A stretch of 64,000 nt of DNA from an uncultured virus (IMG/VR IMGVR_UViG_3300042731_008559) (taxonomy: Duplodnaviria; Heunggongvirae; Uroviricota; Caudoviricetes): the IMG/VR virus record IMGVR_UViG_3300042731_008559. The stretch is one strand, 5' to 3'. The notes under the pieces were generated by a model that was given only the letters and a program-made list of their open reading frames with translations, had not been told where the DNA came from and searched no databases. The number at the start of each line of letters is the position of its first letter. Within the stretch, counting starts at the first letter, position 1. Of this stretch, positions 42,854-64,000 are shown piece by piece. A program made the position numbers and the translations under genes.

Positions 42854-42856
42854 GCC

Positions 42857-43522: not shown

Positions 43523-43535
43523 GTGGGGAGGATCG

Positions 43536-43922
43536 ATGTACGAATACATGACAGGACTTGGTACTGATGACGTCAGGCCGATGGGGGTCATGCCAGACGG
43601 AAGAACGATTCCTCCTGTCCATGAGTGGGACTGGGCGATCCCCGCGGATGCGAGGTTCCGCGGGATTCAGGTCCCTGAGACAGAGGAAGAGCGCGAAGCT
43701 TTTATGGCGCAGATCGAGGCTGGTCTGGTGCCTGAGGGAGTCTGGGTCAACCCACACTTCCGACAGTGGGGCCGACGGCCCGAAGAGGGAGAGCCAGGTC
43801 ACACGGTCGAGCCCGGCCCAGATCCTGAGAGCGGTGCTTACTGGGTCAAGATCGGGATCGTGTCTGTTGGGATCGTCGCTCTTATCGGCGGCATCGCTCT
43901 GTTCACAACAGCAGGGAAGTGA
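43536..43922 (+). CDS. Small tail-anchored YEY-leader protein
   Basis: SD GGAGG; MYEYMTGLG; C-terminal TM. Confidence 0.85.
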   Translation: MYEYMTGLGTDDVRPMGVMPDGRTIPPVHEWDWAIPADARFRGIQVPETEEEREAFMAQIEAGLVPEGVWVNPHFRQWGRRPEEGEPGHTVEPGPDPESGAYWVKIGIVSVGIVALIGGIALFTTAGK

Positions 43923-43925
43923 TTC

Positions 43926-44189
43926 ATGCAGAGCCCTGACGCCAATATGCCGAACCAGATGCCGCTCTCAGACCCGGCGACGCTCGAACCGTTCGTGGAG
44001 CAATACGCTGTCGTCATAGGTCAGCAAGAGGCGGCGCTGCATCAGCATCCGGCGCAGGCAGTCGCAAATCAAGAGCTGGCCCGGGTGCGAGAAAGCCAGC
44101 GCCCGTGGTACGTGCGGAGACGATGCGATCTCGTGGCGTGGGGAGCCATCACGGGGATGGTCATCGGCTACATCCTGAGGTCGAGATGA
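43926..44189 (+). CDS. Small tail-anchored protein
   Basis: Q-rich helix, PWY and C-terminal TM; ATGA-coupled to the first EMGY gene. Confidence 0.7.
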   Translation: MQSPDANMPNQMPLSDPATLEPFVEQYAVVIGQQEAALHQHPAQAVANQELARVRESQRPWYVRRRCDLVAWGAITGMVIGYILRSR

Positions 44190-44713
44190 CCCCGGTCATT
44201 GAAGTCGAATGTGAGGGACGCCCCATTCGTATCCGGCTGACGCCTGAGGGTCCTGAGTTTCTCAACTACGATATTGAGCACGACATCACGCTCGTCGAGA
44301 TGGGTTACGACCCGACGGAGTGCTACACGCTGTGGCATCAGCTCGTTAACGAGCCTTATTCTTTCTACAGAGACAACGGGTTTCTTCCAGAAAGTATGGA
44401 GGCCTCTTACGCTGTTCTAACGGTTTCAATCGAAAGCATAAAACCGTCGGATCGGTTTACGCTCGAAAGAGAAGAGAACGACCGTAAAGCGCTGAACTAT
44501 GACACCTGGTTTGAGGTGCAAACAATTCAAAGAGGGTATCTCGTAAGTATCCCAGATGAAGATGGATTCTTTGAAGAGCTTCGAGGGGTAAGGAAGAAAG
44601 TTGGTTACAGCAAGAAGCTGATAGATATTTGTGCATACGCCGTGTCGATAGGTGTTTTTGTGGTGGAGTTCGCTGATGACGCACCTGCGTTGACGGTGTC
44701 CGGTAGCTGGTAA
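44186..44713 (+). CDS. EMGY-domain protein 1
   Basis: IEVECEG..PEFLNYDIEHDITLVEMGYDPTEC. Confidence 0.85.
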   Translation: MTPVIEVECEGRPIRIRLTPEGPEFLNYDIEHDITLVEMGYDPTECYTLWHQLVNEPYSFYRDNGFLPESMEASYAVLTVSIESIKPSDRFTLEREENDRKALNYDTWFEVQTIQRGYLVSIPDEDGFFEELRGVRKKVGYSKKLIDICAYAVSIGVFVVEFADDAPALTVSGSW

Positions 44714-44715
44714 CC

Positions 44716-45255
44716 ATGTGGAAGATGCGCGCCATAGAGTTCGAGTGTGACGGAAAGACTGTTCTGGTACGTCCTGGAGAAGACGGCGAGCCAGAGTTCC
44801 TCGATTACGACCTTGATCACGATGTGACGCTCGCAGAGATGGGGTATCCAGCAAGCGAGTGCCTTCAGCTTTATCGCAAGTGGTCGATAAACCCCTACTC
44901 CTTCTGCGTCGAAATGGGGCTGTTGCCACCTGCCTTCGACTTTACGCGTCCGATGCTCGTTGTACCGCGGCGTAATCTCCCGAAGATGATAAACAGAACC
45001 GTCACTCGCATCGGTAACGCGAGCGGTCCCGACGCCAACTGGTACGATCACTACTTCGAGGGTTGGGTAAATGGAGTCGTCTTTGAGATTCCGCTCGAAC
45101 CGGGGGCGCGCGAGCAGCTCTACGAAGATGCTGAGCTGGACGAGTATTTCCCTGACATCGTTGATTTTGCCATCTCGAACGAGATCGAACTCATCAACTT
45201 CATGGACCCGGTAGCCGAGCTGCTCCCAGGCTTCCCGGAGTTTGAGCAGTATTAA
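44716..45255 (+). CDS. EMGY-domain protein 2
   Basis: IEFECDG..PEFLDYDLDHDVTLAEMGYPASEC; body similar to 44186. Confidence 0.85.
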   Translation: MWKMRAIEFECDGKTVLVRPGEDGEPEFLDYDLDHDVTLAEMGYPASECLQLYRKWSINPYSFCVEMGLLPPAFDFTRPMLVVPRRNLPKMINRTVTRIGNASGPDANWYDHYFEGWVNGVVFEIPLEPGAREQLYEDAELDEYFPDIVDFAISNEIELINFMDPVAELLPGFPEFEQY

Positions 45256-45266
45256 CCGGAGGACTC

Positions 45267-46847
45267 ATGTACGAGTACAACACAAAAGGTCGACAGCCGC
45301 TGGGTCTCATAAACCTGTCGCGTGCTCAGATCTTCAGCCAGGGCCTTGGCGCGATTCAGCCCTCAGAGGCTCAGCTCTTCAGCGGCATGGGAGCCATCCA
45401 GCCCTCCGAAGCTCAGCTCTTTGACGGGATGGGGGCTATCCAGCCCTCCGGTGCGAAGGTGTATCGATTTGGACCTGGAATCGTCCAGAGGACGAGGTCT
45501 CAGCTCGTTGGGAGCTGCGATCCATCGATCGAAGAATGCTGCGTCGGATGTCAGAACTCGGCTCTCTCTAACGTCGGAGTCGAGGAAAGGACAGGACACT
45601 CCTGGCTGTTCTGGGTTGGAATCGGCCTTGGTGTGGGCGGTGCGCTCTACTTGCTTACAAAAAGCGGCATCTTCGAAAACCCCAGGGACGTCACCGATTC
45701 CGAGGCGGCTCAGCAGGCCGCTGCACTCGCAGTGCAGGCAGGGCTTCCCACCATCCTTTGGGGGCCTCCTGGAATAGGGAAGTCGAGCTGGCTGGAAGCC
45801 CTCGGCGAAGCGATGAACGCCGAGGTCTTTACGGTCATCGGCTCAACCAAGGATCCAGCCGACATTGGCGGCATCATGAATCTCGAAGGCAGAACGATCC
45901 CGCCCATGTGGGCTCAGAAGATTCGCAAGCGTTCGGACCAGCGAAAGCGCTCGGTTCTGTTCCTGGACGAGTTCACGAGCATGAGCCCGCTCGTGCACGC
46001 CGCGCTGCTTCGAGTCGTTCGGGAAAAGATCGCCGGAGAGCTGAACTTCGACCCCACTGACAGGTATGTCTCAGTTGTCGCCGCCGCGAACGCCCCCGAG
46101 GAAGGTGCAGGCTCGATGGAGCTTCCTCCTCCGGCCGCTAACCGGCTCATTCATATCAAGTGGGTGCCGCCTTCTGTTGTGGAGTGGGGAGTGGGGCTTC
46201 TTTCTTCGGAGTGGCCAAAGCCTCAGCTCCCGGCACTCCCGAGAGACTGGAAGAGGACTCGTGAGGCTGTCAGCGCAGAGGAAGACGTCGCGGCTTTCGT
46301 CGCCTATCAGCAGAGGTACATGCTGGAACTGCCTGCGACATCGGCAGCAAGAGGCGAGGCATGGCCGAGCCCCAGGAGCTGGGAGATGGCTGCGGACGCT
46401 CTGGGCGCCGCCCGAGTCGTCAACGCTCCTCCCCAGGTCATCTTCAAGCTTGTCTCTGGTGCGGTCGGGATGCTGCCAGCCAAGAAGTTCTTCGATTGGC
46501 TCAACGACCGAGACGCTGTTGATGGACGAGACATTCTCGCAGCTCCCAAGAAATATGAGGTGCAGCTAGGTCGTCCTGACGTCCTCTATGCCGCCGCAAA
46601 CGCTGTCGTAAACGAGGTCAAGAAGTCGCCGTCGCGGGATGCCTGGGAGCGGGCTTGGGAGTTCATGGAGCACGCCAGGGCGAAGTCTGACAGGCCAGAG
46701 GTGCTGGCGCTCGCGGCCGACAGGCTGATGGCCTTGACCAAAGACAAGCGCTTCGTGGCAGCCATCAAGGACGCGGAGATTCCCGAAGACGAAATGCTCG
46801 ATGAGTATCGCGTCGAGGGTGTTCGAGTCTTCGGAGGTCTACGATGA
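45267..46847 (+). CDS. MoxR-type AAA+ ATPase with YEY leader, G[LM]G repeats and TM extension (copy A)
   Basis: Walker A GPPGIGKS, Walker B LFLDE, sensor-1 AAAN, Arg finger NR, WPSPRSW; N-terminal MYEYNTKG, TM WLFWVGIGLGVGG and ENP. Confidence 0.92.
   Translation: MYEYNTKGRQPLGLINLSRAQIFSQGLGAIQPSEAQLFSGMGAIQPSEAQLFDGMGAIQPSGAKVYRFGPGIVQRTRSQLVGSCDPSIEECCVGCQNSALSNVGVEERTGHSWLFWVGIGLGVGGALYLLTKSGIFENPRDVTDSEAAQQAAALAVQAGLPTILWGPPGIGKSSWLEALGEAMNAEVFTVIGSTKDPADIGGIMNLEGRTIPPMWAQKIRKRSDQRKRSVLFLDEFTSMSPLVHAALLRVVREKIAGELNFDPTDRYVSVVAAANAPEEGAGSMELPPPAANRLIHIKWVPPSVVEWGVGLLSSEWPKPQLPALPRDWKRTREAVSAEEDVAAFVAYQQRYMLELPATSAARGEAWPSPRSWEMAADALGAARVVNAPPQVIFKLVSGAVGMLPAKKFFDWLNDRDAVDGRDILAAPKKYEVQLGRPDVLYAAANAVVNEVKKSPSRDAWERAWEFMEHARAKSDRPEVLALAADRLMALTKDKRFVAAIKDAEIPEDEMLDEYRVEGVRVFGGLR
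45351..45450 (+). repeat. 42-bp tandem repeat (~2.4 copies) encoding AIQPSEAQLF[SD]GMG
   Basis: Units start at 45351, 45393 and 45435, with synonymous differences. Confidence 0.9.
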
Positions 46848-48307
46848 ACTATCGAGACGACAACGATGATGGGCGCTACGTAGCAGTTCGCCCTCCGCTC
46901 ACTGCCCAGCAGGTCATACCCCCGCAGATGGGGGCTATCGTACCCATATACGACGACGACTCTCCGATTGCGAGCTGCGCAGGGTGTAGTAACCTCGGAA
47001 CAGAAAATCCTGAGGACGGACAATTTGCTGGACGCCCCTGGTGGTTTTGGGTTGGGATCGGCGTTGGTGTTGGAGCCGGCATCTACTTCGTCAAGCGCTC
47101 CCGTATTCTTCGCAATCCCGATGAGCTGAGTGAGGCTCAGATCGCACAGCAGGCTGCTGCAATCGCCGTCCAGTCCGGTGTCCCAACCATCTTGTGGGGC
47201 GCTCCTGGTATCGGTAAAACGACCTGGCTGGAAGCTCTCGGCGAAGCGATGGATGCCGAGGTCTTCACCGTTATTGGCTCGACGAAAGACCCGGCAGACA
47301 TCGGCGGCATCATGAAGCTCGATGGCTCGCTGGTCCCACCAGTTTGGGCTCAGGAGATCAGGGCCAGGGCCGATCAGGGTAAGCGCTCGGTTCTGTTCCT
47401 GGACGAGTTCACGAGCATGAGCCCACTCGTTCATGCCGCTATGCTGCGGGTGGTGCGCGAGAAGATCGCTGGGGAGCTGAACTTCGATCCGAAGAGCGGG
47501 CCGCTCCGTGGAGAGGCATGCAGTGTCGTCGCCGCCGCGAATCCGTCTGGAGAGGGTGCTGGAGCCATCGACTTGCCGCCGCCAGCGGCAAACCGGATGC
47601 TCCACATCAAGTGGCCAGAGCCCTCTGGGATCATCTGGGGTCTCGGTCTGATGCTCGGGTGGGCCAGGCCTCGCTTGTTCTCACTTCCGAAGGACTGGCG
47701 AAAGACTTCAGAGGCCATGAGCGCCAAGGAGGATATTGCGGCCTTCCTTCGTCGTCGTGAAGAGCTTTTCATGATGATGCCGAAGACGCAGACAGAGCGC
47801 GGCCTTGCGTGGCCGAGCCCGCGAACCTGGGACATGGCGGCAGAAGCCCTCGGGGCAGGACGTGCTGTCTGGGCTCCGATGGACGTTCAGGCGCTGCTTG
47901 TCAAGGGGTGCGTGGGTGAAGGTCCAGGCGGCGAGTTCATGAACTGGATCAAGGAGAGAGACCTGCCAGACGCAGAAGAGGTCATGCTCGATCCAACCAT
48001 CTGGGACGTGAAGAACGCCCGCAGCGATCAGATCTACGCTGTCGGTCAGTCGCTCGTCGCGGCGGTACAGCGAAAGCCCTCAGAAGAGCGTTTCCTTCAG
48101 GCGTGGGATGTCGTCGGTTACGTCGTCGACGAGACAAACAAGGTCGACGCAATGTTTACGACGGTCCTCGATCTGACCAAGATCGCTACGAGTGATCGCT
48201 ATCCACAGATCAAGGGCACGAAGCCGCCGAGCCGCCTGGTGAAGAAGTTCTTCCCCATGATGAAAAAGGTCGGCGTCTTGAAGGGTCTGGCGAAGAAAAA
48301 GAAGTAG
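46844..48307 (+). CDS. MoxR-type AAA+ ATPase with N-terminal leader and TM (copy B)
   Basis: GAPGIGKT, LFLDE, AAAN, NR, WPSPRTW; CAGCSNLG, TM WWFWVGIGVGVGAG and RNP. Confidence 0.92.
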   Translation: MNYRDDNDDGRYVAVRPPLTAQQVIPPQMGAIVPIYDDDSPIASCAGCSNLGTENPEDGQFAGRPWWFWVGIGVGVGAGIYFVKRSRILRNPDELSEAQIAQQAAAIAVQSGVPTILWGAPGIGKTTWLEALGEAMDAEVFTVIGSTKDPADIGGIMKLDGSLVPPVWAQEIRARADQGKRSVLFLDEFTSMSPLVHAAMLRVVREKIAGELNFDPKSGPLRGEACSVVAAANPSGEGAGAIDLPPPAANRMLHIKWPEPSGIIWGLGLMLGWARPRLFSLPKDWRKTSEAMSAKEDIAAFLRRREELFMMMPKTQTERGLAWPSPRTWDMAAEALGAGRAVWAPMDVQALLVKGCVGEGPGGEFMNWIKERDLPDAEEVMLDPTIWDVKNARSDQIYAVGQSLVAAVQRKPSEERFLQAWDVVGYVVDETNKVDAMFTTVLDLTKIATSDRYPQIKGTKPPSRLVKKFFPMMKKVGVLKGLAKKKK

Positions 48308-48309
48308 GG

Positions 48310-49050
48310 ATGGCCATTGTCACGGAGATACGCTGCGGAGGTGGAGTACACGAGGTCGAAGTAGACCGCGGTGGATTAACCATCTTCGATTTTGACTACG
48401 ACGAGGAGGCCGTTCTCGTCGAGATGGGTTACTCCGGTAGCCCCTGCTACCAGGCTATCAACTTCTACCCCACCAAGCCTCTCTACGTCCTCATGATGCT
48501 TCAGAGGGGGCTTTGGGCAACGGAAGATTACGGAGTCGGCATTCTCCCATACGAGGCCTGGGTGCAGCTAGGGATTGACTATGTCCATCACATCGATTGG
48601 GTATTCTCTGAACGCGGGCAGCAGCAGCACTTTGAAATGTTCGCGGAGGCTGAGCACCCCTGGTTTTACAGTGCCGTGAGAGCGGTAGAGGGTTCGCTGG
48701 AGGGTCGTTTTACAACGATGATGCTCGACAAGGTTCGGAAAAACCTTCGAGATCAAGGGCTGTATGTCGGTCATCCACCTGCTGCGTACCACGCCAATAA
48801 AAGTGCCGTTCAGCTCATCAACGCTGCAGAGTGGCTCGTTGCCATCTCGCTACCAAAGGTTCGGGCAAAGGCCGAAAAGAACTTTTTCAAGTACATCTTC
48901 GAGGTCAGCTCGCAAGCACAAGAGGCCGTGAGGAACAAGGCCATTCAGGAGAACGAAGATCCTGACAAGGCGGAGATGGAAGAGAAGAAGTGGCAGCTCG
49001 ATCACACGCTCGACTTCATCGAGCGATACCATGAGGAGACGTCACCATGA
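48310..49050 (+). CDS. EMGY-domain protein 3, helical Imm5-like body
   Basis: EIRCGGG..DYDEEAVLVEMGYSGSPC; ends EKKWQLDHTL; lies between MoxR and vWA genes. Confidence 0.85.
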   Translation: MAIVTEIRCGGGVHEVEVDRGGLTIFDFDYDEEAVLVEMGYSGSPCYQAINFYPTKPLYVLMMLQRGLWATEDYGVGILPYEAWVQLGIDYVHHIDWVFSERGQQQHFEMFAEAEHPWFYSAVRAVEGSLEGRFTTMMLDKVRKNLRDQGLYVGHPPAAYHANKSAVQLINAAEWLVAISLPKVRAKAEKNFFKYIFEVSSQAQEAVRNKAIQENEDPDKAEMEEKKWQLDHTLDFIERYHEETSP

Positions 49051-50780
49051 CGATTCGAATGATCAACCCAGGAAGGCCTCGAAGGGGGCGAAACCCTGGT
49101 GACCCATATGAGCTGGTGCGGGCAGCGCGCCTTTTTCTGCTCAGGGCATCGCAGCGGCCCTATCTCGCGACAGCAGCGATGACGCTTCGCATGGTGCACG
49201 ACAAAAGCATCCCGACAGCGGCTGTCGATTCGAGCTGGCGGATGTACTTCAACGATGAGTTTTTGGACAGGGCAGGTGTCGAAGCTGGCGCGGCTGTCAT
49301 GGAGCATGAGCTGTGGCACCTGCTCCGTCGTCACGGAGAGCGCGCCCGAAAACTGAACGTGCCCCGCGATCTGGCGAAGGTCTGGAACTTCGCGGCAGAC
49401 GCGGAGATCCATTCTGACGATACGCTCGTGAAACGGCTCAAAGAGATTCCTGGATTCGAGCCGATCACTCCAGAGAGCTTCAACTTCGAAAAGGGGCTGC
49501 TGGCGGAGGAGTATTACGAAATGCTCCTCGAAGCTCCAAAGGGCGATGTCTTCGGTGAGACGCCTGACGGCGACGTCAAGGTGTACAAGCGAACCATCAT
49601 CAAGGTGAAGAAGCCTGGGAAAGAACCGCCTCCCGAGCCGCCGCAAGAAGGAGAAGAAGACGAGCCGCCGCCAGTTGGTCCTCCGCCGGATCCGGTTATT
49701 GTCTATGAGTACGAAGAACCCTGGACAGGAGAGCGGCCTCCAGGGACGAAACCTCCTTATGTCATTTACGATCCTCGCCTGCCTCAAGAAGGAGAAGAAG
49801 GCGTAGGAGAGAGAGGTCAGCCGGTAGAGGGCGAAGGTGATTTCGAAGAAGGCGAAGGTGAAGGCGAAGGCGAAGGTAAGAGCGCTGAAGACAAGTACGA
49901 CGAGGGAGAGCAGGTCGAGCAGGGGCAGACCACAGGTGGTGAGCCTAGCTCCACGCCGCATGTCGGAGAGGGCGATTGTGGTTCATCCGCAACTGGTATC
50001 CCGGCTCCCTGGGAGGATGAGCCCGACGACTTCGTTGATCGATCGCAAGAGGACTTCATCCGAAAAAAAACGGCCGACAAGGTCATCGAGGAGTCAGCTA
50101 CGGGTCGTGGAACGGGCGTGGGCTCGACAATAGTTCAGTGGGCCGAAGAAGAGCTTTCGCCATCTGCGGTGAATTGGCAGCAGCAGCTCCGAAGCGCTGT
50201 CTCGAACGCTATCAACTTTGTGGCAGGTTCTTTCGAGTTCTCTCGCCGTCGCGTGAGCCGGCGCCAATGGCACCAGAAAGACATTCTACTCCCAGGCCTC
50301 GTTCACCCTGTGCCTGAGGTGGCAATCATCATCGATGTCTCCGCCTCGATGTTCGCCGCGTTCAACGATGGCAGCGCCAAGGCGAAGGGGAATTACACGC
50401 TCCTCGAACAGGCGATGGGAGAAGTTGCAGAAATTGTCAGGCAGTTCGGTTCGACGATAGGTGTCAGTGTCTTCGCGACGGACACGACGGTCTCGTGGAC
50501 TGGTCGGATTTTTAACCCGTCTGACATTCAGAAGTATCTGAGTGAGGCAAAGATCGGCGGCGGAACAGACCTGACAGTTGGGATGAACGCTGCCTATCAT
50601 TCGCAGCCCCGCCCGAACATCATGGTAGTCCTGACGGACGGTGGCACTCTCTGGCCCGACTCTCCGCCGCCCAACATGCGGGTTGTTATCGGTATCGTCG
50701 GAAGCGATGAGGCGCAGATGGAGAGGTGGGGCGGAATACCACCGTTCGGTGATGTCATCTACATCACCTCTGGCAAGTGA
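49047..50780 (+). CDS. DUF2201-type protein: HExxH metallopeptidase-like domain, P/E/G-rich linker, vWA (MIDAS) domain
   Basis: TAAVD, HELWH, WNFAADAEI; GDCGS; DVSAS, GGGTD and LTDG. Confidence 0.9.
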   Translation: MTIRMINPGRPRRGRNPGDPYELVRAARLFLLRASQRPYLATAAMTLRMVHDKSIPTAAVDSSWRMYFNDEFLDRAGVEAGAAVMEHELWHLLRRHGERARKLNVPRDLAKVWNFAADAEIHSDDTLVKRLKEIPGFEPITPESFNFEKGLLAEEYYEMLLEAPKGDVFGETPDGDVKVYKRTIIKVKKPGKEPPPEPPQEGEEDEPPPVGPPPDPVIVYEYEEPWTGERPPGTKPPYVIYDPRLPQEGEEGVGERGQPVEGEGDFEEGEGEGEGEGKSAEDKYDEGEQVEQGQTTGGEPSSTPHVGEGDCGSSATGIPAPWEDEPDDFVDRSQEDFIRKKTADKVIEESATGRGTGVGSTIVQWAEEELSPSAVNWQQQLRSAVSNAINFVAGSFEFSRRRVSRRQWHQKDILLPGLVHPVPEVAIIIDVSASMFAAFNDGSAKAKGNYTLLEQAMGEVAEIVRQFGSTIGVSVFATDTTVSWTGRIFNPSDIQKYLSEAKIGGGTDLTVGMNAAYHSQPRPNIMVVLTDGGTLWPDSPPPNMRVVIGIVGSDEAQMERWGGIPPFGDVIYITSGK

Positions 50781-51517
50781 GCGATGGGGGTGAACTCGTG
50801 TCCTTCGTACTTGCTGCCCGATGCGACGACCAAATCGTCGATGCCCAAGTCGACGATGACGGCGATTTGACCCTCGACTACGACCTCGAAGAAGACATCG
50901 CGCTCGAAGAGATGGGGTATCCAGCGTCGGACTGCCTTAGTCTCGTCCGAGAGTTCGAGGATGAGCCCGTCAAGGCTCTTCTCAGTAATGAGGCGTTGCT
51001 CATTCCTGAGGCGGATAGGGTGCTGTTGGCGATTGGCATAGCGGACCATGCGATCGAGAGATTCGGGAGGTATCACGGAAAAGACTATTTTTCGGACTCT
51101 CCTGAAAAAAGACTCGCTTTGAGAGACATCATTATGATGTCCGGAAATATAACGAGGGCTTCACAGGCTTATCGCTTGCTTGAAAGAGCAAGGGGGGAGG
51201 TAAAACTCGCCGAGCATCGCAAGGATGTTTCTGAAGCAGACAAGGCTTTCAGAATCGCCTACAGCGATGAGCTGATCGCCACTGCCGTCCGAGAGGCGAT
51301 GAAGGCTCTTCATGCTCACCTCTACGGACATACACAGCTCGCCGGGCCAGCTCCCGTGCTTGTGCGGAAGTTTTCGCAGGACACAGCGTCTTATACAAGG
51401 CAGTCAGCGACGCAGCAGGGTATGGCTGAGCGAGACCAGAAAGCTTACGGCAACGAGTACCAATGGCAGCTCGACTACATTCTCGACTATTTTTCTGACC
51501 AGGAGGATGAGGAATGA
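50777..51517 (+). CDS. EMGY-domain protein 4, Imm5-like body
   Basis: RCDD..DGDLTLDYDLEEDIALEEMGYPASDC; IADHAI; EYQWQLDYIL. Confidence 0.85.
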   Translation: MSDGGELVSFVLAARCDDQIVDAQVDDDGDLTLDYDLEEDIALEEMGYPASDCLSLVREFEDEPVKALLSNEALLIPEADRVLLAIGIADHAIERFGRYHGKDYFSDSPEKRLALRDIIMMSGNITRASQAYRLLERARGEVKLAEHRKDVSEADKAFRIAYSDELIATAVREAMKALHAHLYGHTQLAGPAPVLVRKFSQDTASYTRQSATQQGMAERDQKAYGNEYQWQLDYILDYFSDQEDEE

Positions 51518-53123: not shown

Positions 53124-53125
53124 CC

Positions 53126-54972: not shown

Positions 54973-54974
54973 GC

Positions 54975-55700: not shown

Positions 55701-55712
55701 GGGAGAAGAACC

Positions 55713-56759
55713 ATGGCGCTGAGAGTCAAGATTCCCTGTGAGCTGGTCGAAGAAGGCGAGGTCGAAGCGATTGTCTCTCTCGATGACCCCTACAGCAACT
55801 CATTTCTCGTCGAACTGCCAGAAGAGATCGACGTGGATGAGCACCTCACCCTCGCCGAGATGGGCTACGATCTCCCCGACTGCGTCCAGTTCAAGGTGGA
55901 CGTCGAGAAGGGTCATGGTCTCAGAAACATCTTTTCCAAAGAGGAGTACTTCCAGGCATTCTTCGAGGCCATCGAGGCGCAGGGACCGCAGGCAATCGGA
56001 GACAAGGAGACCTGGGAGGTCGACGAAGAAGCTGTCGCTGGTGCATTAGCTATTCTTCTCGTAGATGCGATGGCCCATGGCTCGGACGTCAAGACGGACA
56101 TGGACTTCGAGCTGGTTGTTGAGATCATCAAAGAACACTGGGAGGGGTTCTTCAAGACAAACGCCTACCATGACAAGGAGATGGAGCTGGTTCGGCTCGC
56201 CTACGAGAATGAGGAGCATGACTTCATCAAAAAGCTCGATGAGGTCACCCAGTCGACGCTATACGAGGTGAACGTACAAGAGACGTCGTCTTCGGACGGC
56301 CCAGGACATGCGAAGGTCATGGGGTTCGTCACACTGACAGTCGGTGAGGAGACCGTAGATGAGTGGGACGTTTGTTATCTCGGATACGTAGACCTCGAAA
56401 TGCTCGATTGGGAAGTCGAGCAGTGCGACGAGCACGGGGAGCCCACGGCGACGGCCGAAGATTTTCTCGACACTATGGGAGAAGGAACGGACTTCGAGTC
56501 CGAGTTTCGTCTTTACGAACCTGATGTCCCCTACGATGAGGGTGAGGGCCGATATTCGGTTTTCGTTAACGATGTAAGGGTCGCGACGTTTGACGACTAC
56601 AGCGATGCTGACAACCTCTTTGACGCCCTCGAAGATTCAAGGGACGTGCAGAACAAGCATGACTCCATTGCTTTGATGGAACTCGACGACGAGCTAGATC
56701 CTGAAGAGGACGACATCGACCTCGACGATCCAGGTAACTACTTCACGATGAGGTCGTAG
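55713..56759 (+). CDS. EMGY-domain protein 10, very acidic (paralog of 56762)
   Basis: MALRVKIPCEL..ELPEEIDVDEHLTLAEMGYDLPDC. Confidence 0.85.
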   Translation: MALRVKIPCELVEEGEVEAIVSLDDPYSNSFLVELPEEIDVDEHLTLAEMGYDLPDCVQFKVDVEKGHGLRNIFSKEEYFQAFFEAIEAQGPQAIGDKETWEVDEEAVAGALAILLVDAMAHGSDVKTDMDFELVVEIIKEHWEGFFKTNAYHDKEMELVRLAYENEEHDFIKKLDEVTQSTLYEVNVQETSSSDGPGHAKVMGFVTLTVGEETVDEWDVCYLGYVDLEMLDWEVEQCDEHGEPTATAEDFLDTMGEGTDFESEFRLYEPDVPYDEGEGRYSVFVNDVRVATFDDYSDADNLFDALEDSRDVQNKHDSIALMELDDELDPEEDDIDLDDPGNYFTMRS

Positions 56760-56761
56760 TC

Positions 56762-57805
56762 ATGGCGCTGAAGGTCACAATACCCTGCGAGCTGTATGAC
56801 GAGGGCAACGTCATCGTGCACATCACAGCCGACACCAGAACAGGTGAGATGCTCGTCGAGCTTCCTCCGGAGATCGATGTCGAAGAGCATATCGTGCTCG
56901 ACGAGATGGGCTACGACCTTCCCGACTGTATCGGTTTCAAAATCAGCGTTGAGAAGGGCGGCATCGTCAGCATCTTCAAAAAGCAAGGTCGATTCGAGCC
57001 ATTTATGGAAGCAATCTACGATCAGGGTGTTGAAACACTCGGTGATGAGTATCCGGTCGACGATGAAGACTTTGCCGAGGTGTTGATGGATTTTTTGGTT
57101 CAAGAAGTTGCGATGACCAATATTCGTAGCGAGATGGATAACGATGTCATCCTCGAAATCATCAAGGACAAGTGGCCAGAGTTTTTTCAAACCAGAGGAT
57201 ACCTCGATCGAGAGATGGAGCTGGTATCGTCCGCTTACGAGCAGGAGGATATTGATTTCATAAAGAGGCTAGACCCCGCGACGAACTCGACCCTTTACCG
57301 GTTGGAGTTTGGAACTCCGAAGTACGAAAAAGGCGCCGGACACATCAAGGCTGAGCTGCTGGTTGAGCTTCATGTCGCTGATGAGATAGTAGAGGACATC
57401 AACGTCTGCTTTGAAGGATGGTTCAACGATCTTGTCGGTCTTGGCTGGGACGTGGATGAGTGCGAAAACTCAATGAGCCTCAGCGACAACGCCGCTCACC
57501 TGCTCGAAGTCATGGGGGAGAATACAGACTTCGAAGACTACCTTGACCTGGAAGAGCCGTGGCTTCCCTACTGCAACGAGGACAAGGGCTACTTCTCTGT
57601 TTTTGTCGATGGAGAACGCGTGATGACATGTTGGGGCCAGGAGGACGCGGAGTTTCTTTTCGACGCCCTGCGCGATGCCAAGGACTACAAGTCTCAGGGG
57701 GCCGAGATCGAGCTGATGGCGATCGACCCGGATGAGTGGAACCCCGAGGAAGACGACATCAACTACGACGACATGTACTACTATTACGAAATCAGGAGCG
57801 GATAG
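56762..57805 (+). CDS. EMGY-domain protein 11, very acidic (paralog of 55713)
   Basis: MALKVTIPCEL..ELPPEIDVEEHIVLDEMGYDLPDC; shared EMELV..AYE.E..DFIK.LD. Confidence 0.85.
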   Translation: MALKVTIPCELYDEGNVIVHITADTRTGEMLVELPPEIDVEEHIVLDEMGYDLPDCIGFKISVEKGGIVSIFKKQGRFEPFMEAIYDQGVETLGDEYPVDDEDFAEVLMDFLVQEVAMTNIRSEMDNDVILEIIKDKWPEFFQTRGYLDREMELVSSAYEQEDIDFIKRLDPATNSTLYRLEFGTPKYEKGAGHIKAELLVELHVADEIVEDINVCFEGWFNDLVGLGWDVDECENSMSLSDNAAHLLEVMGENTDFEDYLDLEEPWLPYCNEDKGYFSVFVDGERVMTCWGQEDAEFLFDALRDAKDYKSQGAEIELMAIDPDEWNPEEDDINYDDMYYYYEIRSG

Positions 57806-57807
57806 CC

Positions 57808-58938
57808 ATGTCTCCCATCCACGCAACTCTGACCCTGAACCTTTGGGACGAAGACAACGAGGAAGTGGTTCCCGTCGAGGTGCACTACCTCATGGATCGC
57901 ACCCTGGACGTGGGCGATTTCGATCTGGAAGAAGCTATCGTCCTCGAAGAGATGGGCTACGAAACCTCGCCGGTTCTTGGAATCGTCAGGGCGCTAGAGA
58001 AGTACGAGAAAGATTTTTTCGACGCGCTCAAGAAGGTGAGGCCGAGGACCAAGCTCACGGCTGAACAAACAGCACAGCTCGTCTCCAAGATTCTCTTCAA
58101 GCGGTTCTTCGAGGGGACCGATTCCGACGAGTCCGACTGGGATGCACAAGAAGCTCACTACGCGATCCTTGGCGAAGACGAATACGTGAGGCAAGGCATC
58201 CTCCTGCTCAAGGATCGCATCGCTGAGGAGCAGGCAGGGAAGAGATTTTACGGAAAAGGTGAATCGGGCGAGGTCGCGCAGATGCTTGAGCCCTACCTCG
58301 TCGAACCAGACCACATGGAGGTCGAGGTTCGTCATCAGGGCTATCGCGACGTCTACGATCCGAATGTCATGTCATGGAACAACATCCTCGATGCTCGCTA
58401 CTGTCTTGTCATCTCGGACATCGAGGTTGCGTGCTGGTCTCGCACCCTTGAATTCAGGATATATGACCCCGTCGGATTCAACGGGGAGGTCGTTGACTGG
58501 GGCGAGGAGTGGGGCATCGAAGAAGCGAAGCTGCCCGATAACGTCAGCGGTGTGCTGAATGAGCTTGGCCTTGACGAGCCTGAGCTGGAAGACCCAGAGC
58601 CGCCCGATTATCCCATGAAGGCGACAGCCAAAGATCCCCATCCTTGGCACGGGGTGCTCTACGAGATTGACCCAGCGGGATGGAAGCCTGACGCACCCGT
58701 TGAATACACGGTCGTTCCGTATGACACGCTATTCCATGCCACCGAGGCGAAGGAACTTTCGGAGACGATTGTCGAACATGAAGGCGACTCCCCAATCCGT
58801 GCGATGTGGCTGGTAAGAGAAAAGTCCGCAGATGAGCGTCGCGAGGATGAATTGCTGGAAAGACAGGGTGTTCTTTTCGAGTTCGAGGAGCCTCCGGAAT
58901 GGACCAAAGACTGGGTCATACTGGAGGACGAGGATTAG
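57808..58938 (+). CDS. EMGY-domain protein 12
   Basis: DFDLEEAIVLEEMGYE; RIYDP, LGLDEP and GVLYE. Confidence 0.85.
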   Translation: MSPIHATLTLNLWDEDNEEVVPVEVHYLMDRTLDVGDFDLEEAIVLEEMGYETSPVLGIVRALEKYEKDFFDALKKVRPRTKLTAEQTAQLVSKILFKRFFEGTDSDESDWDAQEAHYAILGEDEYVRQGILLLKDRIAEEQAGKRFYGKGESGEVAQMLEPYLVEPDHMEVEVRHQGYRDVYDPNVMSWNNILDARYCLVISDIEVACWSRTLEFRIYDPVGFNGEVVDWGEEWGIEEAKLPDNVSGVLNELGLDEPELEDPEPPDYPMKATAKDPHPWHGVLYEIDPAGWKPDAPVEYTVVPYDTLFHATEAKELSETIVEHEGDSPIRAMWLVREKSADERREDELLERQGVLFEFEEPPEWTKDWVILEDED

Positions 58939-58941
58939 CAG

Positions 58942-60093
58942 ATGCCACTGACAATCATATTGCCCTTCGAGGAAGAAGACGGAGAAGATATCGACGTCGA
59001 GATCGATATTTCAGCGGACGGTACCATCGAAGTCCGCGGCTACGATATCGAAAATGCGCTCACCCTCAATGAGATGGGCTACGAAGTCGAGGACGAGCCG
59101 TTCGAGTTCTACCAGGCGTTCACGGAAGGTGCGGAGGGTGGTCCCGTCACTGCGCTCAAGAACCTTCTCCTGCACGGCGTCTATGACGACGATTGGGCAG
59201 ATGCCCTAGCCGATGCTATCGAAGAGCAGGGCATTGAAGAGTACGGCCCAGAGTTCAAAGCAGAAAAACTGTTCAGCGTGCTCATCGAGCAGCAGCTCAA
59301 GGGCAAACGAGATGTCGAAGACTTGATCGTCTCTGTGATTGGTGAGGACCGATTCAAGGAACTGCTGATCGAGCGGCTGAAGCAAGAGGCTGGAAAACAC
59401 GGCTTCGATGGCGTCTATGCTGAAGAGCTTGCCAGCCTGCTTTCGACGAGGCTTGAAGAGGGCGCTCGCATAGAGTCCTCGTGCTTCCACGCCTACGGAC
59501 TTGAGGACTGGGAAAGCCGGCTCGATTGCGAGTACACCCTTGTTGTTGACAATGAAGATATCGCTAGTTGGAAGCGGGCGATCGAGAAGCGAATCTTCGA
59601 TCCTATTCACTTTTATAGCGAAGCCACTGACTGGGAAGAGTATGACGCCGCTGGACACACCATTGGTCAGGGGTTGTCAGATGCTCTCAATGGCCTTGGA
59701 CTGGAAGAGCCCGGTCCTGAAGAGGAGGAGGTCGAAGAACCAGACCACCCCACGCCGGCCGATGACGAATTTCTGGCGGACTACGGTGTCCTCTACACCA
59801 TCTACGACACGAAGTGGGTTTCAGGTGAGGGCGACGTTCGCCTTGGCGTCGATGAGGAGGTCGTCGTTGCCTATAACGAGCTTCACGAAGCGAGAGACGC
59901 AGTGTGGCTTTCCGAGGCGATCATCAGGCGCGACGGTGAACAGAAGAAGTATGACATCGCGCTGCTGCGCAAGAAGACTGACGAGGAGATAGAGGAGGAA
60001 GAATTTCGGGCGCGACAGGAGTCACTGTTCGAGGAGGAAATTCTTGACCGTCCAGACTGGATGGATGAGTGGGCTCTATTGGAGGATGAATGA
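58942..60093 (+). CDS. EMGY-domain protein 13
   Basis: DGTIEVRGYDIENALTLNEMGYE; RIFDP, LGLEEP and GVLYT. Confidence 0.85.
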   Translation: MPLTIILPFEEEDGEDIDVEIDISADGTIEVRGYDIENALTLNEMGYEVEDEPFEFYQAFTEGAEGGPVTALKNLLLHGVYDDDWADALADAIEEQGIEEYGPEFKAEKLFSVLIEQQLKGKRDVEDLIVSVIGEDRFKELLIERLKQEAGKHGFDGVYAEELASLLSTRLEEGARIESSCFHAYGLEDWESRLDCEYTLVVDNEDIASWKRAIEKRIFDPIHFYSEATDWEEYDAAGHTIGQGLSDALNGLGLEEPGPEEEEVEEPDHPTPADDEFLADYGVLYTIYDTKWVSGEGDVRLGVDEEVVVAYNELHEARDAVWLSEAIIRRDGEQKKYDIALLRKKTDEEIEEEEFRARQESLFEEEILDRPDWMDEWALLEDE

Positions 60094-60830
60094 TCTTCGA
60101 GGTCGAATGCGGTGGGGAGGAGTACGATGTCGAGCTGAAGCCCGACGGTGAGATCCTCACTGATTATCCTTTTGAGGAAGAAGCAACGCTCGTCGAGATG
60201 GGATATGAGCCATCCGAGTGCTTTTCCAAGTTCGTTTTAATCGACAATTGGCCAGTGCAGTTCCTGATCGAGTTCATAGTGCAGTCACGCACCCTGACCG
60301 TGCTCCTCGGTTTGGATTTCGCTGAGTATGTCATCCCTGTTTTTGGCCGTCTTTATCCCGATGAGCTTACAGCGCTGCTGCGGAAAGCCGTGAGTATCGG
60401 TCGCGAGAAAGCTGTTTCAGGGGCTTCGTTCCAGGCCCTCATAGATGCAAAGGCGCAGGTTCAGAAAATAGAAAGAAAATTTGCCAGAGAATACGAATAT
60501 CCAGGGAAACCATCTCGATACACATCGATGATGACATTGGTCGGCAAGCAGGTCGGTAATGGGGCCACGATGTCAGTCCGTCAAGCTCTCAATGCTGTCC
60601 AGAGGTTGGTTGGCTCGGGGGGTGTGCTTCCAATCAGAGGAGGCGTCTTCGGGGCATCGAATTACGCCCACATCAACGCGTCAATGTTCCCATCTTGGTC
60701 AAAAAAGACAACGCTATGGCAGATCAAACGCATCTACAAGGTGATGGACGCTGAGTTGAAAGGCAAACCGTACCCCCAAATGACGTTTCCGTCCGTGATG
60801 CCCTGGGAAACGGGAGACTTTGGACGATGA
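60090..60830 (+). CDS. EMGY-domain protein 14, Imm5-like body
   Basis: EVECGGE..DGEILTDYPFEEEATLVEMGYEPSEC; DFAEYVIPVF..YPDE; LWQIKR. Confidence 0.85.
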   Translation: MIFEVECGGEEYDVELKPDGEILTDYPFEEEATLVEMGYEPSECFSKFVLIDNWPVQFLIEFIVQSRTLTVLLGLDFAEYVIPVFGRLYPDELTALLRKAVSIGREKAVSGASFQALIDAKAQVQKIERKFAREYEYPGKPSRYTSMMTLVGKQVGNGATMSVRQALNAVQRLVGSGGVLPIRGGVFGASNYAHINASMFPSWSKKTTLWQIKRIYKVMDAELKGKPYPQMTFPSVMPWETGDFGR

Positions 60831-61915
60831 ATTACTCGGGCGTCGAATTCGTGATCGACGAGAGCGACCTCATCTCGGAGATGGTCTTCTGCTACGTCTC
60901 ACAGGAAGGACTCGACGTCGCCGGCTACACACAGGAGGAGCTTGAGGAAGAGATCGTACTCGGCGAGATGGGTTACGAGCTGTCGCCGATTGCAGAGCTT
61001 GTCCAGAGCTACAACGAACACGGGCTCGCTGCATTGTTCGTCGACCCAGGGAGGCTCAACTCGTTCTTGGAGAACGCGGACCCGAAAACGATCGAGGCGC
61101 GGTACGGTCCAGAGTGGGAAGAGGACATCACCGAGGCGGTGTTTCACATTGTCAATTATTTCGAGGTGGACTGGGAAAACCAACGAGACATCTTGAAGAA
61201 GCTCGGCGGGCTCGTCAGTCAGACGACAGTGTTTGAAATACGTCCTGAGGATGGTGGAAATATGACCATCGAGGAGGGGGCCGAAATGCCTGGTTCCTTG
61301 GTGGAGGGAAAGTGCCGGGCATCTCTGCAGATTGGCGGCAAAGAGGCGGTCTCCTGGAATGAGTGGTATTACGGCAAGTACGAGGGAGACTTCGTCAACG
61401 ATAGCGTCGAGTGGTCATCTGGCCTGGATGACGAGACTACCTTCAAAGAGCTGGATGAGCAGCGCAACCTGAAGGCATTGCTCAACGGGATCACGGGCGG
61501 ATACAAGGGGTCGTGCGAGCTGGAGGAGCCCTGGGTCTATCAAGGCTGGGAGTACTCTCCGCTTGAAGGACAGCATGACGGGCGATGGGCCGTGTCCATC
61601 GCTGAACCCTTTGAAATCTTCTTCGCTTACTACAACAGCGAAGAGGCTGCTCGTGCAGCGCTTGACTACATTGATCGGTTTATTGTCAATCCCCGTAGTG
61701 GGAGCTGGGTACGATTCGTGTTGCGTGCGAAAAAAACAAACCCTTCCCCTCCGGTGTTTGAAATTGATGACGACTTCGACTACATGGACCCCGGCAAGAT
61801 CTTTATGGTGAGTCCAGACTGGGAGATTGTCTCTAAAACACGAAAGATTACCCGCCATAAGAGCGCTGGAGGAGCAAAGTTATCAAGTAAGTCGTTCTGG
61901 GTAGAGGTGGACTGA
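60827..61915 (+). CDS. EMGY-domain protein 15
   Basis: GLDVAGY..EEEIVLGEMGYE. Confidence 0.85.
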   Translation: MNYSGVEFVIDESDLISEMVFCYVSQEGLDVAGYTQEELEEEIVLGEMGYELSPIAELVQSYNEHGLAALFVDPGRLNSFLENADPKTIEARYGPEWEEDITEAVFHIVNYFEVDWENQRDILKKLGGLVSQTTVFEIRPEDGGNMTIEEGAEMPGSLVEGKCRASLQIGGKEAVSWNEWYYGKYEGDFVNDSVEWSSGLDDETTFKELDEQRNLKALLNGITGGYKGSCELEEPWVYQGWEYSPLEGQHDGRWAVSIAEPFEIFFAYYNSEEAARAALDYIDRFIVNPRSGSWVRFVLRAKKTNPSPPVFEIDDDFDYMDPGKIFMVSPDWEIVSKTRKITRHKSAGGAKLSSKSFWVEVD

Positions 61916-63600
61916 TGGGACTCGTCCTGAGGATGCCAGAAGATGGCAAGCGCATCGAGCTGCTTCCAGGCCGCTGGATCGGCAAGACCGACTTCAGTGA
62001 CGAGGACGCCGAAGAAGCGCTGGTCCTCGAAGAGATGGGCTATCCGCTGCCGCTGTGGGCTCGCATCACAAGGGCCTACACCGAGCATGGAATAGATGAT
62101 GGTATCGCCACCGACATCGAGATGATCCGCGTCGTCGACGATGCGGTTCAACAACAGGGAATCGGCAAAAAATGGACGGGAGACGAGCCCGCGGAGCTGA
62201 TCGAGCTTGGTTGGAGGCGAAACTTCATCGAGCGGGCCATCGAGCGAGGGCACGACGACGGCGTCTACATCGGGCAGAGGAAGATGCCACTCGAAGAGGC
62301 TGCAGAGCTGTGGGTAACGGAGGCAAGGAGCGCTTTTTTCGACAACACGATGCCAGACGTTATCATCAACTTCGATGGGTACCGCGTCGAGATGCTCGAA
62401 TCGATCGACCCGCGGGTCGCCTTCTTTGATGACATCTTTGATTGGTCGGTTTCTGGTTCGAGCCGCCCCGAATACGCCTGGGACACCATAGAAAGTCCCC
62501 ACGCTCGCCTCTATCTCGTCTCCAAAGTTGAAAAGAGGCGAAACAAACCCGTTGCCATCGCGTGGGCCTGGCGAACTCAGGGGGTCTACGAAGAGGTAGA
62601 GGGCGGAACGAGGCCGGGCGGAACTCGTATGGAGATGGTCGAGGTCGAGCCCGGACCCATCGTCGTCATCGACGCGGTCCAGACCATCTACAGGACGCGC
62701 AAGGCTAACGTGAAGATCTTGAAGGCGATCGAGGCGCTGGCTCATGCGATGCTCGAAAACGAAGAGACTATCACAGAGGTGCGCATTCAAAACGACGAGC
62801 TGAGTTCCTACGAAGTTCAGGAATATCTTTCTTCGCCCTATGCCAGCCCGTGGAAGAAAGTAGGCGACGAGAGCGTGTGGCGTGAAGAGATGCACAAACA
62901 CCCGCAGATCGATAAGTTTGGCCAGGGGTGGATGCAGACCCAGTGGCTCCTTGCATCACGCGAATCACCAGACGAGAACCCGCAAGAGTGGAAATGCCCG
63001 CTCCGCACCGAGATGTACGGCGGCATGCCTGAGGGCGGCAACTTCGGATCCGCAACCATGCTGGAGCTGGGCGCCCAGAACATCGCTGAGGCTGCTCACT
63101 GCATCCTTGGCTCTCTCGGAAAGCTGACCAGGCGAGGAGACTCAGGGCAAGACGAGTGGGCGAGGTGGCAGTATTCCCTTGTCTACGAGGTGGCCCATCT
63201 CAAAGAGGAGCTGGGCATCATCAACATGTGGGTGTGGAAGTGGTATGAGTACGGCTGGCATCGGGATACTCAGGAGAAATTCAACGACCCGACGCCGGAC
63301 CAGCTCCCCTACGTCGAGAGATCAGTCGAGAACATCCGAGACGTTGCTCCTCCGCTGGTCGTTCTCGCCGAGCTGAAGCGCGCTCATGTCGAAGCGCAGG
63401 AAGACATGCCTGAGCCGATCAAGGCGGCGGCGCTTTCCTCCTACGACGTAATCATCGCCGTCGCAAACGCTGTTTTCGACGCTGTCGAGGGCTGGCCAGA
63501 GGAAAAGGTCTACAACCCCTTCACGGTTACGCCCCTTCAGGCGGCGACACAGCGGCTCGGAGAGACCATAAATGAGCTACTAACCTACGTGAGGCGATGA
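61915..63600 (+). CDS. EMGY-domain protein 16 (largest, 561 aa)
   Basis: DFSDEDAEEALVLEEMGYP; long body unlike the others. Confidence 0.85.
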   Translation: MGLVLRMPEDGKRIELLPGRWIGKTDFSDEDAEEALVLEEMGYPLPLWARITRAYTEHGIDDGIATDIEMIRVVDDAVQQQGIGKKWTGDEPAELIELGWRRNFIERAIERGHDDGVYIGQRKMPLEEAAELWVTEARSAFFDNTMPDVIINFDGYRVEMLESIDPRVAFFDDIFDWSVSGSSRPEYAWDTIESPHARLYLVSKVEKRRNKPVAIAWAWRTQGVYEEVEGGTRPGGTRMEMVEVEPGPIVVIDAVQTIYRTRKANVKILKAIEALAHAMLENEETITEVRIQNDELSSYEVQEYLSSPYASPWKKVGDESVWREEMHKHPQIDKFGQGWMQTQWLLASRESPDENPQEWKCPLRTEMYGGMPEGGNFGSATMLELGAQNIAEAAHCILGSLGKLTRRGDSGQDEWARWQYSLVYEVAHLKEELGIINMWVWKWYEYGWHRDTQEKFNDPTPDQLPYVERSVENIRDVAPPLVVLAELKRAHVEAQEDMPEPIKAAALSSYDVIIAVANAVFDAVEGWPEEKVYNPFTVTPLQAATQRLGETINELLTYVRR

Positions 63601-63601
63601 G

Positions 63602-64000
63602 ATGTCCTTCGATTTGAAGATTGAATGCGACGGCAATGAATACGACGCCACCATTGATGATGATGGCGACCTGCTCATCTTCGAGTACGATGCCTCCGAA
63701 GACGAGACGCTCGCCGAGATGGGTTATGAGCCCACAGAATGCATGATGCTTTCGACGGGTTGGAAAGACTTCCGTGCGCTGCTGGAGAAGGACGGTCAGT
63801 GGGAAGACTTCATGGACGGCGTCACCGGCGCCGAAACAACGTTCGAGCTTGACGGTGAGGAGTTCACGGAACGATACGACATGGAGTTTGACGAGTTTCT
63901 GGACTACTTGACTACTTTCCTCAAGAAGTCCCTGGAAGATTTTGACAGCAGAAGCAGGAGTATCGCTCGCATCATCGGAGCGCTTTCGGACAGCTATGGG
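63602..64000 (+). CDS. EMGY-domain protein 17 (3'-truncated by the window end)
   Basis: Read manually, absent from the ORF track: MSFDLKIECDGNEYDATIDDDGDLLIFEYDASEDETLAEMGYEPTEC, open to the end. Confidence 0.85.
   Translation, partial: MSFDLKIECDGNEYDATIDDDGDLLIFEYDASEDETLAEMGYEPTECMMLSTGWKDFRALLEKDGQWEDFMDGVTGAETTFELDGEEFTERYDMEFDEFLDYLTTFLKKSLEDFDSRSRSIARIIGALSDSYG

Follow-up and report, generated by a model that had tools for sequence, protein, structure and literature searches.

Why should one virus carry, gene after gene on a single strand, a series of proteins that begin with nearly the same short domain and then continue into bodies of different kinds? The question is raised by a 64,000-nucleotide stretch of DNA (the whole of which is referred to here as the window) from the uncultured virus IMGVR_UViG_3300042731_008559, in which an array of such genes extends from position 44186 to the end of the window and also includes genes for two MoxR-like AAA+ ATPases and for a protein with a von Willebrand factor A (vWA) domain. 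The repeated N-terminal domain, referred to here as the module and most readily recognised by the motif L-x-E-M-G-Y, appears to be a new small protein domain that is found on ankyrin, Imm5-like and other binder-type bodies, with at least 18 copies in one genome. We propose tentatively, and with a confidence that falls somewhat short of even, that the array is a virus-borne set of diverse binders on a shared N-terminal handle, resembling the polyimmunity loci of bacteria.

The region from 44186 to the window end consists of 20 tightly packed open reading frames (ORFs), all on the + strand, 17 of which begin with the module. The three exceptions are the two ATPase genes and the vWA gene, as had been described in a first-pass annotation of this DNA, which was also correct in placing one copy of the module (module gene 3, 48310-49050; genes are numbered as in Table 1) between the MoxR and vWA genes. 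A six-frame scan of the 64 kb detected 18 matches to EMGY, of which 17 are on the + strand, from 44297 to 63716, one in each of the 17 ORFs and 36-49 residues after the start, and the last, at 17270, stands alone on the - strand in a frame interrupted by stops. A hidden Markov model (HMM) of the module matches exactly the 17 array ORFs of the window and nothing in its first 44 kb; one further match is an ORF in an overlapping virus record, G001, described below. Many of the junctions had been called translationally coupled, and 10 of the 19 do overlap (7 by 4 nucleotides and 3 by 1), the remaining genes being separated by gaps of 1-12 nucleotides. Scans of the DNA for promoters and terminators gave matches at chance level only. 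The 17 genes probably constitute a tandem multigene family that is co-transcribed. Module gene 12, which had been given a start near 57805, most likely begins with the ATG at 57808.

Among the 17 N-termini (alignment A1) the L, E, M, G and Y of the motif are invariant in every copy, in a setting where the mean column identity is 32%. The earlier consensus is thus sustained for L-x-EMGY and fails for its supposedly fixed Cys residues, since the first (Cys9) occurs in 11 of the 17 copies and the one after the motif (Cys48) in 12. The synonymous sites of the motif differ among copies (CTC/CTT/CTG, GGT/GGC/GGG/GGA, TAC/TAT) and the surrounding DNA is only 60-78% alike, from which it follows that the motif is kept at the level of the protein and is not a DNA repeat. 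A DNA-level recombination cassette was rejected for the same low likeness of the repeats, and so was the idea that translation might start internally, at the Met of EMGY, since the conserved codons upstream contain no Shine-Dalgarno-like sequence. As a separate observation, the Glu codon of EMGY is GAG in all 17 copies, GAG accounting for 65% of the Glu codons in these genes; the nominal probability of this bias is ~6e-4 (uncorrected), and the adjacent codons vary freely.

The module defines a rare family. A search with the A1 profile of 1.84 billion representative proteins gave 117 hits at E <= 1e-3, three of which (giant repetitive proteins matched by many short stretches) were set aside to leave 114 credible members, mostly of 170-380 residues and nearly all with the module at or near the N-terminus. 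In agreement with the earlier statement that no named family was recognised, the module has no match in Pfam, PHROGs, PADLOC, NCBIfam, PDB sequences or fold searches; there was no usable match in the ESM Atlas, no tblastn match to module gene 5 (51514-52278) in cultured phages, and EMGY appears in the literature only in unrelated uses. Searches for further loci were equally unproductive: an alignment of ankyrin-type members (A4) had no relative in viral contigs (0 of 79 stretches) or genome contigs (0 of 211 stretches), no match in viral contigs was obtained with the single proteins P0047, P0125, P0244 and P0022, P0155 led to one distant locus, which lacks the module, and none of the 8 viral loci that matched a degenerate DNA pattern contains it. 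The module is also absent from 41 pattern-selected loci of bacterial and archaeal genomes, and no true module occurs in 401 sampled genomes from the phylum of G003 (a record titled Pirellulaceae (Planctomycetota) metagenome-assembled genome, MAG), where the single hit was a chance TLAEMGY in a peptidase-like ORF. This look-alike (L143, G107:C17, positions 793-1770, - strand) resembles a C-terminal-processing peptidase and carries AAITLAEMGYDSEEV in a helical N-terminal region, with no beta part of the module; its existence suggests that L-x-EMGY is a generic solution for a helix end or turn.

Over 113 N-termini of the family the most constant position is Gly42 (111/113), followed by Asp31 (100/113), Gly23 (92/113), Glu40 (89/113), Cys9 (81/113) and Cys48 (80/113). 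The motif varies across the family (EMGY in 20 members, ELGF in 20, EFGY in 11, and others) and is uniform within some genomes, as for example in this virus, where all 18 copies read EMGY, and on one 47,537-base contig, where all 3 read ELGF; two members on a 143,612-base contig differ from each other (EMGI and ELGD). A C-H-H-C set at positions 9, 15, 30 and 48 occurs in 16 of the 113 and is typical of the ankyrin-bearing subgroup, being invariant or nearly so in alignment A4. None of the 17 window copies has the full set or retains both histidines, and none has a His at position 30 (A1). Judged from these residue patterns, the module of the window appears to be a degenerate form of a putative ancestral, probably zinc-stapled domain whose ligands have decayed here.

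The fold of the module was predicted with AlphaFold2 for P0002, a near-identical relative of the product of module gene 5, from an alignment of 114 sequences, and the full-length model has a predicted local distance difference test (pLDDT) score of 91 and a predicted template modelling (pTM) score of 0.86. The module occupies ~60-65 residues of the model and comprises three strands (3-8, 14-19 and 25-27) and three helices, the first of which (32-40) ends at the motif; the other two (47-57 and 59-65) are continuous with an all-helical body, against which the module is predicted to pack with no linker. Foldseek returned no match to the full-length model at E <= 1e-3. VIA-align matched it to DUF416 structures (Z 11.7 and 11.0) and to 7jtu_B (Z 9.9, 159 residues aligned), the second chain of the entry for a cytidine-deaminase type VI secretion (T6S) toxin and presumably the immunity protein of that entry. 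The module modelled by itself (pLDDT 85) has no structure match above Z 3.2. From the sequences it would appear to be an unnamed small domain that acts as a mobile N-terminal unit, since it precedes folds as unrelated as ankyrin repeats, helical bundles and DUF5983-like domains.

That one N-terminal unit stands on many different bodies, as the first-pass annotation had it, is evident in the relatives as well as in the window. Pfam recognises ankyrin repeats in 24 of the 114 members, Imm5_like in 10 (best E 6.3e-10), Imm5 in 5 and DUF5983 in 3, and none of these matches spans the module; the bodies of 131 family members fall into 46 BLAST clusters. The window bodies had been described as largely unrelated to one another and are certainly diverse but not wholly unrelated, since BLASTP and hhalign sort them into ~10 groups, including six singles. 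One group joins module genes 1 and 2, another 10 and 11, and another 8, 12, 13 and 17; genes 3, 9 and 14 form a group of Imm5/Imm5-like type, in which the links reach only 77-87% hhalign probability. All 17 proteins have a negative net charge (-3 to -75), and 16 of the 17 have no hydrophobic segment. Nothing was found for the window bodies in PHROGs, PADLOC, NCBIfam or PDB sequence searches. Their Pfam matches lie below the curated cut-offs: the body of gene 1 resembles DUF5983 (E 0.0061, 17.3 bits, cut-off 27) and that of gene 9 resembles Imm5 (E 3.7e-4), the latter being, at 21.1 bits against a cut-off of 25, the best match in the window to Imm5 or Imm5_like (PF14423, PF21805), for which the other 16 bodies have none.

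The coupled genes on one strand, the diversity and acidity of binder-like bodies, and the ankyrin and Imm5 bodies of the relatives together match what is known of heterogeneous polyimmunity loci. Zhang et al. (2012; PMC3482391) describe these as tandem, same-strand arrays of up to 19 genes for structurally unrelated immunity proteins, and list ankyrin and Imm5 among the immunity-protein families of polymorphic toxin systems. The window array resembles them in being a long, probably polycistronic series of genes for many different small binders, with the ankyrin and Imm5-type members appearing here in the relatives of the module and weakly in the window itself; it differs in that the described loci are bacterial and their members are without a common N-terminal domain, so that the shared domain and the viral setting would be new. 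According to the interpretation that we favour, each body would bind or inhibit a different toxin or defence effector of the host or of a rival, and the N-terminal domain would be a handle, inherited through duplication and the swapping of bodies, by which all members could be tied to one common viral partner or step. A motif that is invariant within this genome and varied between genomes is a hint of such a partner. We infer both the binder or counter-defence role and the existence of the common partner.

Several observations weigh against this interpretation. No body in the window passes the curated Pfam cut-off of an immunity family, a point in which the array is also unlike the polyimmunity loci. 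No toxin, defence or known anti-defence gene was recognised nearby (PADLOC found none), and no toxin domain that might be cognate to the Imm5-like genes was detected among the window proteins scanned with Pfam, PHROGs and PADLOC. Capsid, portal, terminase and head protease genes were recognised neither by PHROGs (115 ORFs of G001 and 38 window proteins) nor by Pfam (41 ORFs of G001 and 54 window proteins), most of the ORFs in these scans being orphans, and the label "phage" consequently rests on the classification of the database record. The pair EMGI and ELGD on one contig weakens the argument for one partner per genome. The Z scores of 10-12 obtained with the predicted structure lie in a range that VIA-align regards as non-specific for helical bundles, and the extreme acidity of the proteins would suit internal capsid proteins or DNA mimics equally well. 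If the binder interpretation is true, the array would be for a virus what polyimmunity loci are for bacteria, and a compact catalogue of inhibitors from which the toxins and defence effectors of a host not yet cultured could be traced; the existence of a common partner, if there is one, would mean that a large virus manages a whole repertoire of proteins by way of a single recognition surface.

The two ATPases and the vWA protein that stand within the array bear on what this partner might be. MoxR-type AAA+ ATPases work as chaperones together with vWA partners, CbbQ-CbbO and RavA-ViaA being examples, and effector-associated adaptor domains are a feature of the MoxR-vWA conflict systems. The ATPases of the window belong to the MoxR class in that both exceed the AAA_5 cut-off of 22 bits (Table 1), although their AAA_3 scores (22.2 and 24 bits) are below the cut-off of 27; a 100%-identical protein at JGI is named "MoxR-like ATPase". 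They are 52% identical to each other and their genes overlap by 4 nucleotides. A similar doubling seems to occur on other contigs, to judge from ATPases that share longest-contig sizes of 53,926, 7,311 and 5,920 bases. The close relatives (40-58% identity, 470-560 residues), one of which is assigned by its label to a Planctomycetota MAG, retain the N-terminal extension found in the window, which in ATPase 1 has the form MYEY...CxGC...hydrophobic, with the hydrophobic segment at residues 112-131. The bpMoxR family (PF20030) is present in more distant relatives (33-39% identity); ATPase 1 scores 18.4 bits against its cut-off of 27 and ATPase 2 has no match. No beta-propeller or VMAP partner and no effector-associated domain was matched by Pfam among 20 proteins of the locus and 34 upstream, the adaptor families not having been searched by name. 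The vWA protein is of the DUF2201 type, with a zincin-like peptidase domain, an acidic Gly/Glu/Pro-rich insert and the vWA domain, and both of its Pfam matches (DUF2201_N and DUF2201) exceed their cut-offs. It contains HELWH and DVSAS...GGGTD...TDGG, and the HExxH residues and those of the metal-ion-dependent adhesion site (MIDAS; D430, S432, S434, T507 and D531) are invariant in 46 homologues. Compared with the known pairs, the window has a MoxR-like ATPase beside a vWA protein with an intact MIDAS, but the partner is of the DUF2201 zincin-vWA type and the ATPases are in tandem duplicate with N-terminal hydrophobic extensions; compared with the conflict systems, it has in common the notion that variable partners carry one adaptor, but bpMoxR is below its cut-off and no beta-propeller or other ternary protein is among the Pfam hits of the window proteins scanned. 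We found no literature on DUF2201 with MoxR in phage.

Two further observations concern these genes. Most of the 46 homologues lack the long acidic insert of the DUF2201 protein (residues ~190-330, window 49600-50000), and contigs from other wetland runs have small in-frame indels and loose ends at 49846-49884, inside the insert. Immediately before the array, at 40072-43922, at least 7 small ORFs share a second kind of N-terminus, MYEY-like or MSQY-like (their starts are MYEYNTGK, MYESNRSG, MYEYNPHG, MYQQSTAG, MYEYMTGL, MSQYVRRTYGPG and MSQYIMKSYGPG); some contain CxGC, and most end in a hydrophobic segment and then a basic-then-acidic tail. ATPase 1 starts with MYEYNTKG and its relative P0125 with MYEYKQKP, and both ATPases have a Cys motif and a Gly/Trp-rich hydrophobic stretch ahead of the AAA+ core, both of which are kept in relatives.

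The association of the module with the MoxR/DUF2201 genes was examined from two sides. From a scan that used generic Walker-type patterns and that yielded only one close relative (2.8 kb long), 80 metagenomic MoxR-like loci were collected (844.5 kb), whose ATPases are mostly 22-28% identical to those of the window; a DUF2201 gene lies downstream of the ATPase match in 64 of the 80, and the module occurs in none. The MoxR/DUF2201 pair of the phage type is consequently a self-standing module of two genes that works without such clients, and since the two genes are directly adjacent in the loci compared by eye, the module gene wedged between them in the window looks like an insertion. On the positive side, two of 30 module proteins looked up among the 114 appear to share a contig with close ATPase relatives, a conclusion drawn solely from the identical longest-contig size reported for both proteins: P0050 and the ATPase relatives P0125 and P0132 all report 53,926 bases, and P0059 and the ATPase P0145 both report 23,026 bases. 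The motifs of these two module proteins read MMGG (P0050) and DMGD (P0059), and it is therefore not the Glu that travels with the ATPase.

These results can be brought to bear on the proposal of the first-pass annotation, that the module is a docking tag for the MoxR/vWA machinery, with its Glu as a possible ligand of the MIDAS metal and with the ATPases and the zincin remodelling, loading or trimming the cargo. The gene order (2 module genes precede the ATPase/vWA genes, 1 lies between them and 14 follow, and stop codons overlap start codons), the intact MIDAS and HExxH, the two contigs just mentioned, and a motif that is retained in 17 of 17 copies of a module only ~30% identical all speak in favour of the proposal. 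Neither the docking tag nor the role of the Glu is borne out, however, by loci that have DUF2201 and lack the module, by a motif that in the model lies inside a packed domain continuous with the body rather than in a flexible tag, or by a Glu that is less constant in the family than the Gly and is replaced in both members that accompany the ATPases; moreover, the shared contigs may reflect one viral lineage, the ATPases being 50-55% identical across them, and the additional module gene of G001 lies ~52 kb upstream of the array. We regard a client relationship of this kind as decidedly improbable. More improbable still is an elaboration of it, in which the L-x-EMGY turn would be a genome-specific sorting tag by which a membrane-anchored machine of two MoxR ATPases and the zincin-vWA protein recognises at least 18 acidic binders, which it would unfold, trim or load before they are packaged or exported; the adjoining small proteins of the MYEY...CxGC type with a transmembrane segment would then be membrane partners of that machine. 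We know of no description of tag-directed cargo routing of such a kind for viruses.

The constant N-terminus could alternatively be a signal of the kind that directs proteins into the phage head. The T4 protease gp21 cuts at L/I-x-E, and L-x-E precedes M-G-Y in all 17 copies, so that the constant part might send the proteins to the prohead, where a head protease would cut after L-x-E, and the acidic bodies would be injected with the DNA to act early in infection. The strongly negative net charges would fit, as would 13 ORFs just upstream (24070-40075) that could be structural genes. The relevant accounts describe for T4 internal proteins and giant-phage ejection proteins a constant N-terminus on diverse bodies in large viruses, families of up to ~20 paralogues, an x-E at the end of the constant part and a proposed anti-host role (PMC3012670, PMC5694885); for giant phages they report families of head paralogues with as many as 20 members, propeptides of more than 100 residues and A/S-x-E cleavage motifs (PMC5694885). 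The T4 tag, as described there, differs in being 10-20 unfolded residues (PMC3012670), whereas the module of the window is a folded unit of ~60 residues in which conservation after the putative cut (MGY-x-P-x-x-C...W...P) is as strong as before it, unlike a disposable propeptide, and in which the site is predicted to be the end of a helix within the domain. Not every member of the family has the Glu, G001 has no further L-x-E-[ML]-G-[YF] in its 182,770 bases, and no head protease, capsid, portal or terminase gene was recognised in the window or G001. We consider targeting to the capsid quite unlikely. Also unlikely, in our estimation, is the simplest possibility, which is that the N-terminal domain merely caps the structure or nucleates its folding, being what is best conserved in old and rapidly diverging paralogues that share no partner and might have unrelated roles. 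The model in which the domain is packed on the body without a linker (pTM 0.86) is consistent with such a cap, as are the nature of L, M, Y and G as residues typical of helix ends, cores and turns, the fact that the family-wide invariant is the Gly, the chance occurrence of a similar turn, TLAEMGY, within helical sequence of the peptidase-like ORF, which is unrelated, and the decay of the zinc ligands (the full C-H-H-C in 16 of 113 members and 0 of 17 in the window). A generic cap would not, however, be expected to precede clearly unrelated folds in the manner of a mobile unit, and five invariant residues over 17 copies with ~30% identity exceed what it would need.

Table 1. Genes of the array from 44186 to the end of the window
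Feature	Coordinates	Strand	Remarks
Module gene 1, 175 aa	44186..44713	+	EMGY 44297; net charge -16; body weakly like DUF5983 C-terminal
Module gene 2, 179 aa	44716..45255	+	EMGY 44836; body 27% identical to gene 1 body, E 1e-4 (BLASTP)
MoxR-like AAA+ ATPase 1, 526 aa	45267..46847	+	AAA_5 36.3 bits; phrog_1297 E 1.7e-42
MoxR-like AAA+ ATPase 2, 487 aa	46844..48307	+	AAA_5 31 bits; phrog_1297 E 9.2e-43; paralogue of ATPase 1
Module gene 3, 246 aa	48310..49050	+	EMGY 48421; body similar to Imm5_like-type cluster, hhalign 77% probability
DUF2201 protein, 577 aa	49047..50780	+	DUF2201_N 89.2 bits, DUF2201 44.6 bits (Pfam)
Module gene 4, 246 aa	50777..51517	+	EMGY 50909
Module gene 5, 254 aa	51514..52278	+	EMGY 51631; close relative P0002 modelled
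Module gene 6, 281 aa	52278..53123	+	EMGY 52392
Module gene 7, 255 aa	53126..53893	+	EMGY 53249
Module gene 8, 360 aa	53890..54972	+	EMGY 53995; net charge -62; body related to those of genes at 57808 and 58942
Module gene 9, 241 aa	54975..55700	+	EMGY 55095; body weakly Imm5-like
Module gene 10, 348 aa	55713..56759	+	EMGY 55857; net charge -74; 43% identity to gene 11
Module gene 11, 347 aa	56762..57805	+	EMGY 56903
Module gene 12, 376 aa from ATG 57808	57808..58938	+	EMGY 57949
Module gene 13, 383 aa	58942..60093	+	EMGY 59071; net charge -75; 30% identity to gene 12, E 1.7e-22
Module gene 14, 246 aa	60090..60830	+	EMGY 60195; BLAST cluster 1, shared with sequences with an Imm5_like-looking motif
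Module gene 15, 362 aa	60827..61915	+	EMGY 60965
Module gene 16, 561 aa	61915..63600	+	EMGY 62032; no family or PDB match
Module gene 17, cut by window end	63602..64000	+	EMGY 63716; full form of 318 aa in P0004, with the same first residues

The overlapping record G001, likewise from IMG/VR, has 182,770 bases, a linear classification and a CheckV completeness of 95. Window positions 4001-20831 are 100% identical to the first 16,831 bases of G001 on the opposite strand, and G001 contains nothing of the remainder of the window, in which the array and the ATPase and vWA genes lie; if the two records belong to one genome, that genome would have at least ~226 kb. The additional module gene of G001 lies ~7.9 kb upstream of the window start. 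The genes that PHROGs and Pfam recognise in G001 serve replication and nucleotide metabolism and include those for ParB, a helicase, an exonuclease, an AEP primase, methyltransferases, an integrase, SSB, thymidylate kinase and HNH proteins. The primase is of the type found in TOTE conflict systems (E 1.9e-31), the integrase is of the tyrosine type, and there are two orphan proteins of 1,617 and 1,460 residues; the coordinates of the side features in this record are L138:2919-4067, L139:5747-15041 and L139:17518-18573. The stretch represented by the window is present in wetland metagenomes, and contigs from 4 further runs cover the array nearly identically; no rearrangement, novel joint or presence/absence polymorphism was seen in the array in these 4 runs.

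Elsewhere in the window, a sugar-modification island occupies 7890-23572 on one strand, with two GT4 and several GT2 glycosyltransferases, a pyruvyl-transferase/methyltransferase fusion, a radical SAM protein, a sulfotransferase-like protein, an SGNH hydrolase and a TSCPD-domain protein; a further two glycosyltransferases are encoded in G001. The 13 consecutive + strand ORFs at 24070-40075 encode proteins of 170-615 residues with no Pfam or PHROG match, the last of which (38615-40075) has two hydrophobic segments, and these ORFs may be unrecognised structural genes. Near the other end of the window, at 1181-2425, a 414-residue protein is matched along its length by ~30 helix-turn-helix models of Pfam and probably contains several helix-turn-helix units.

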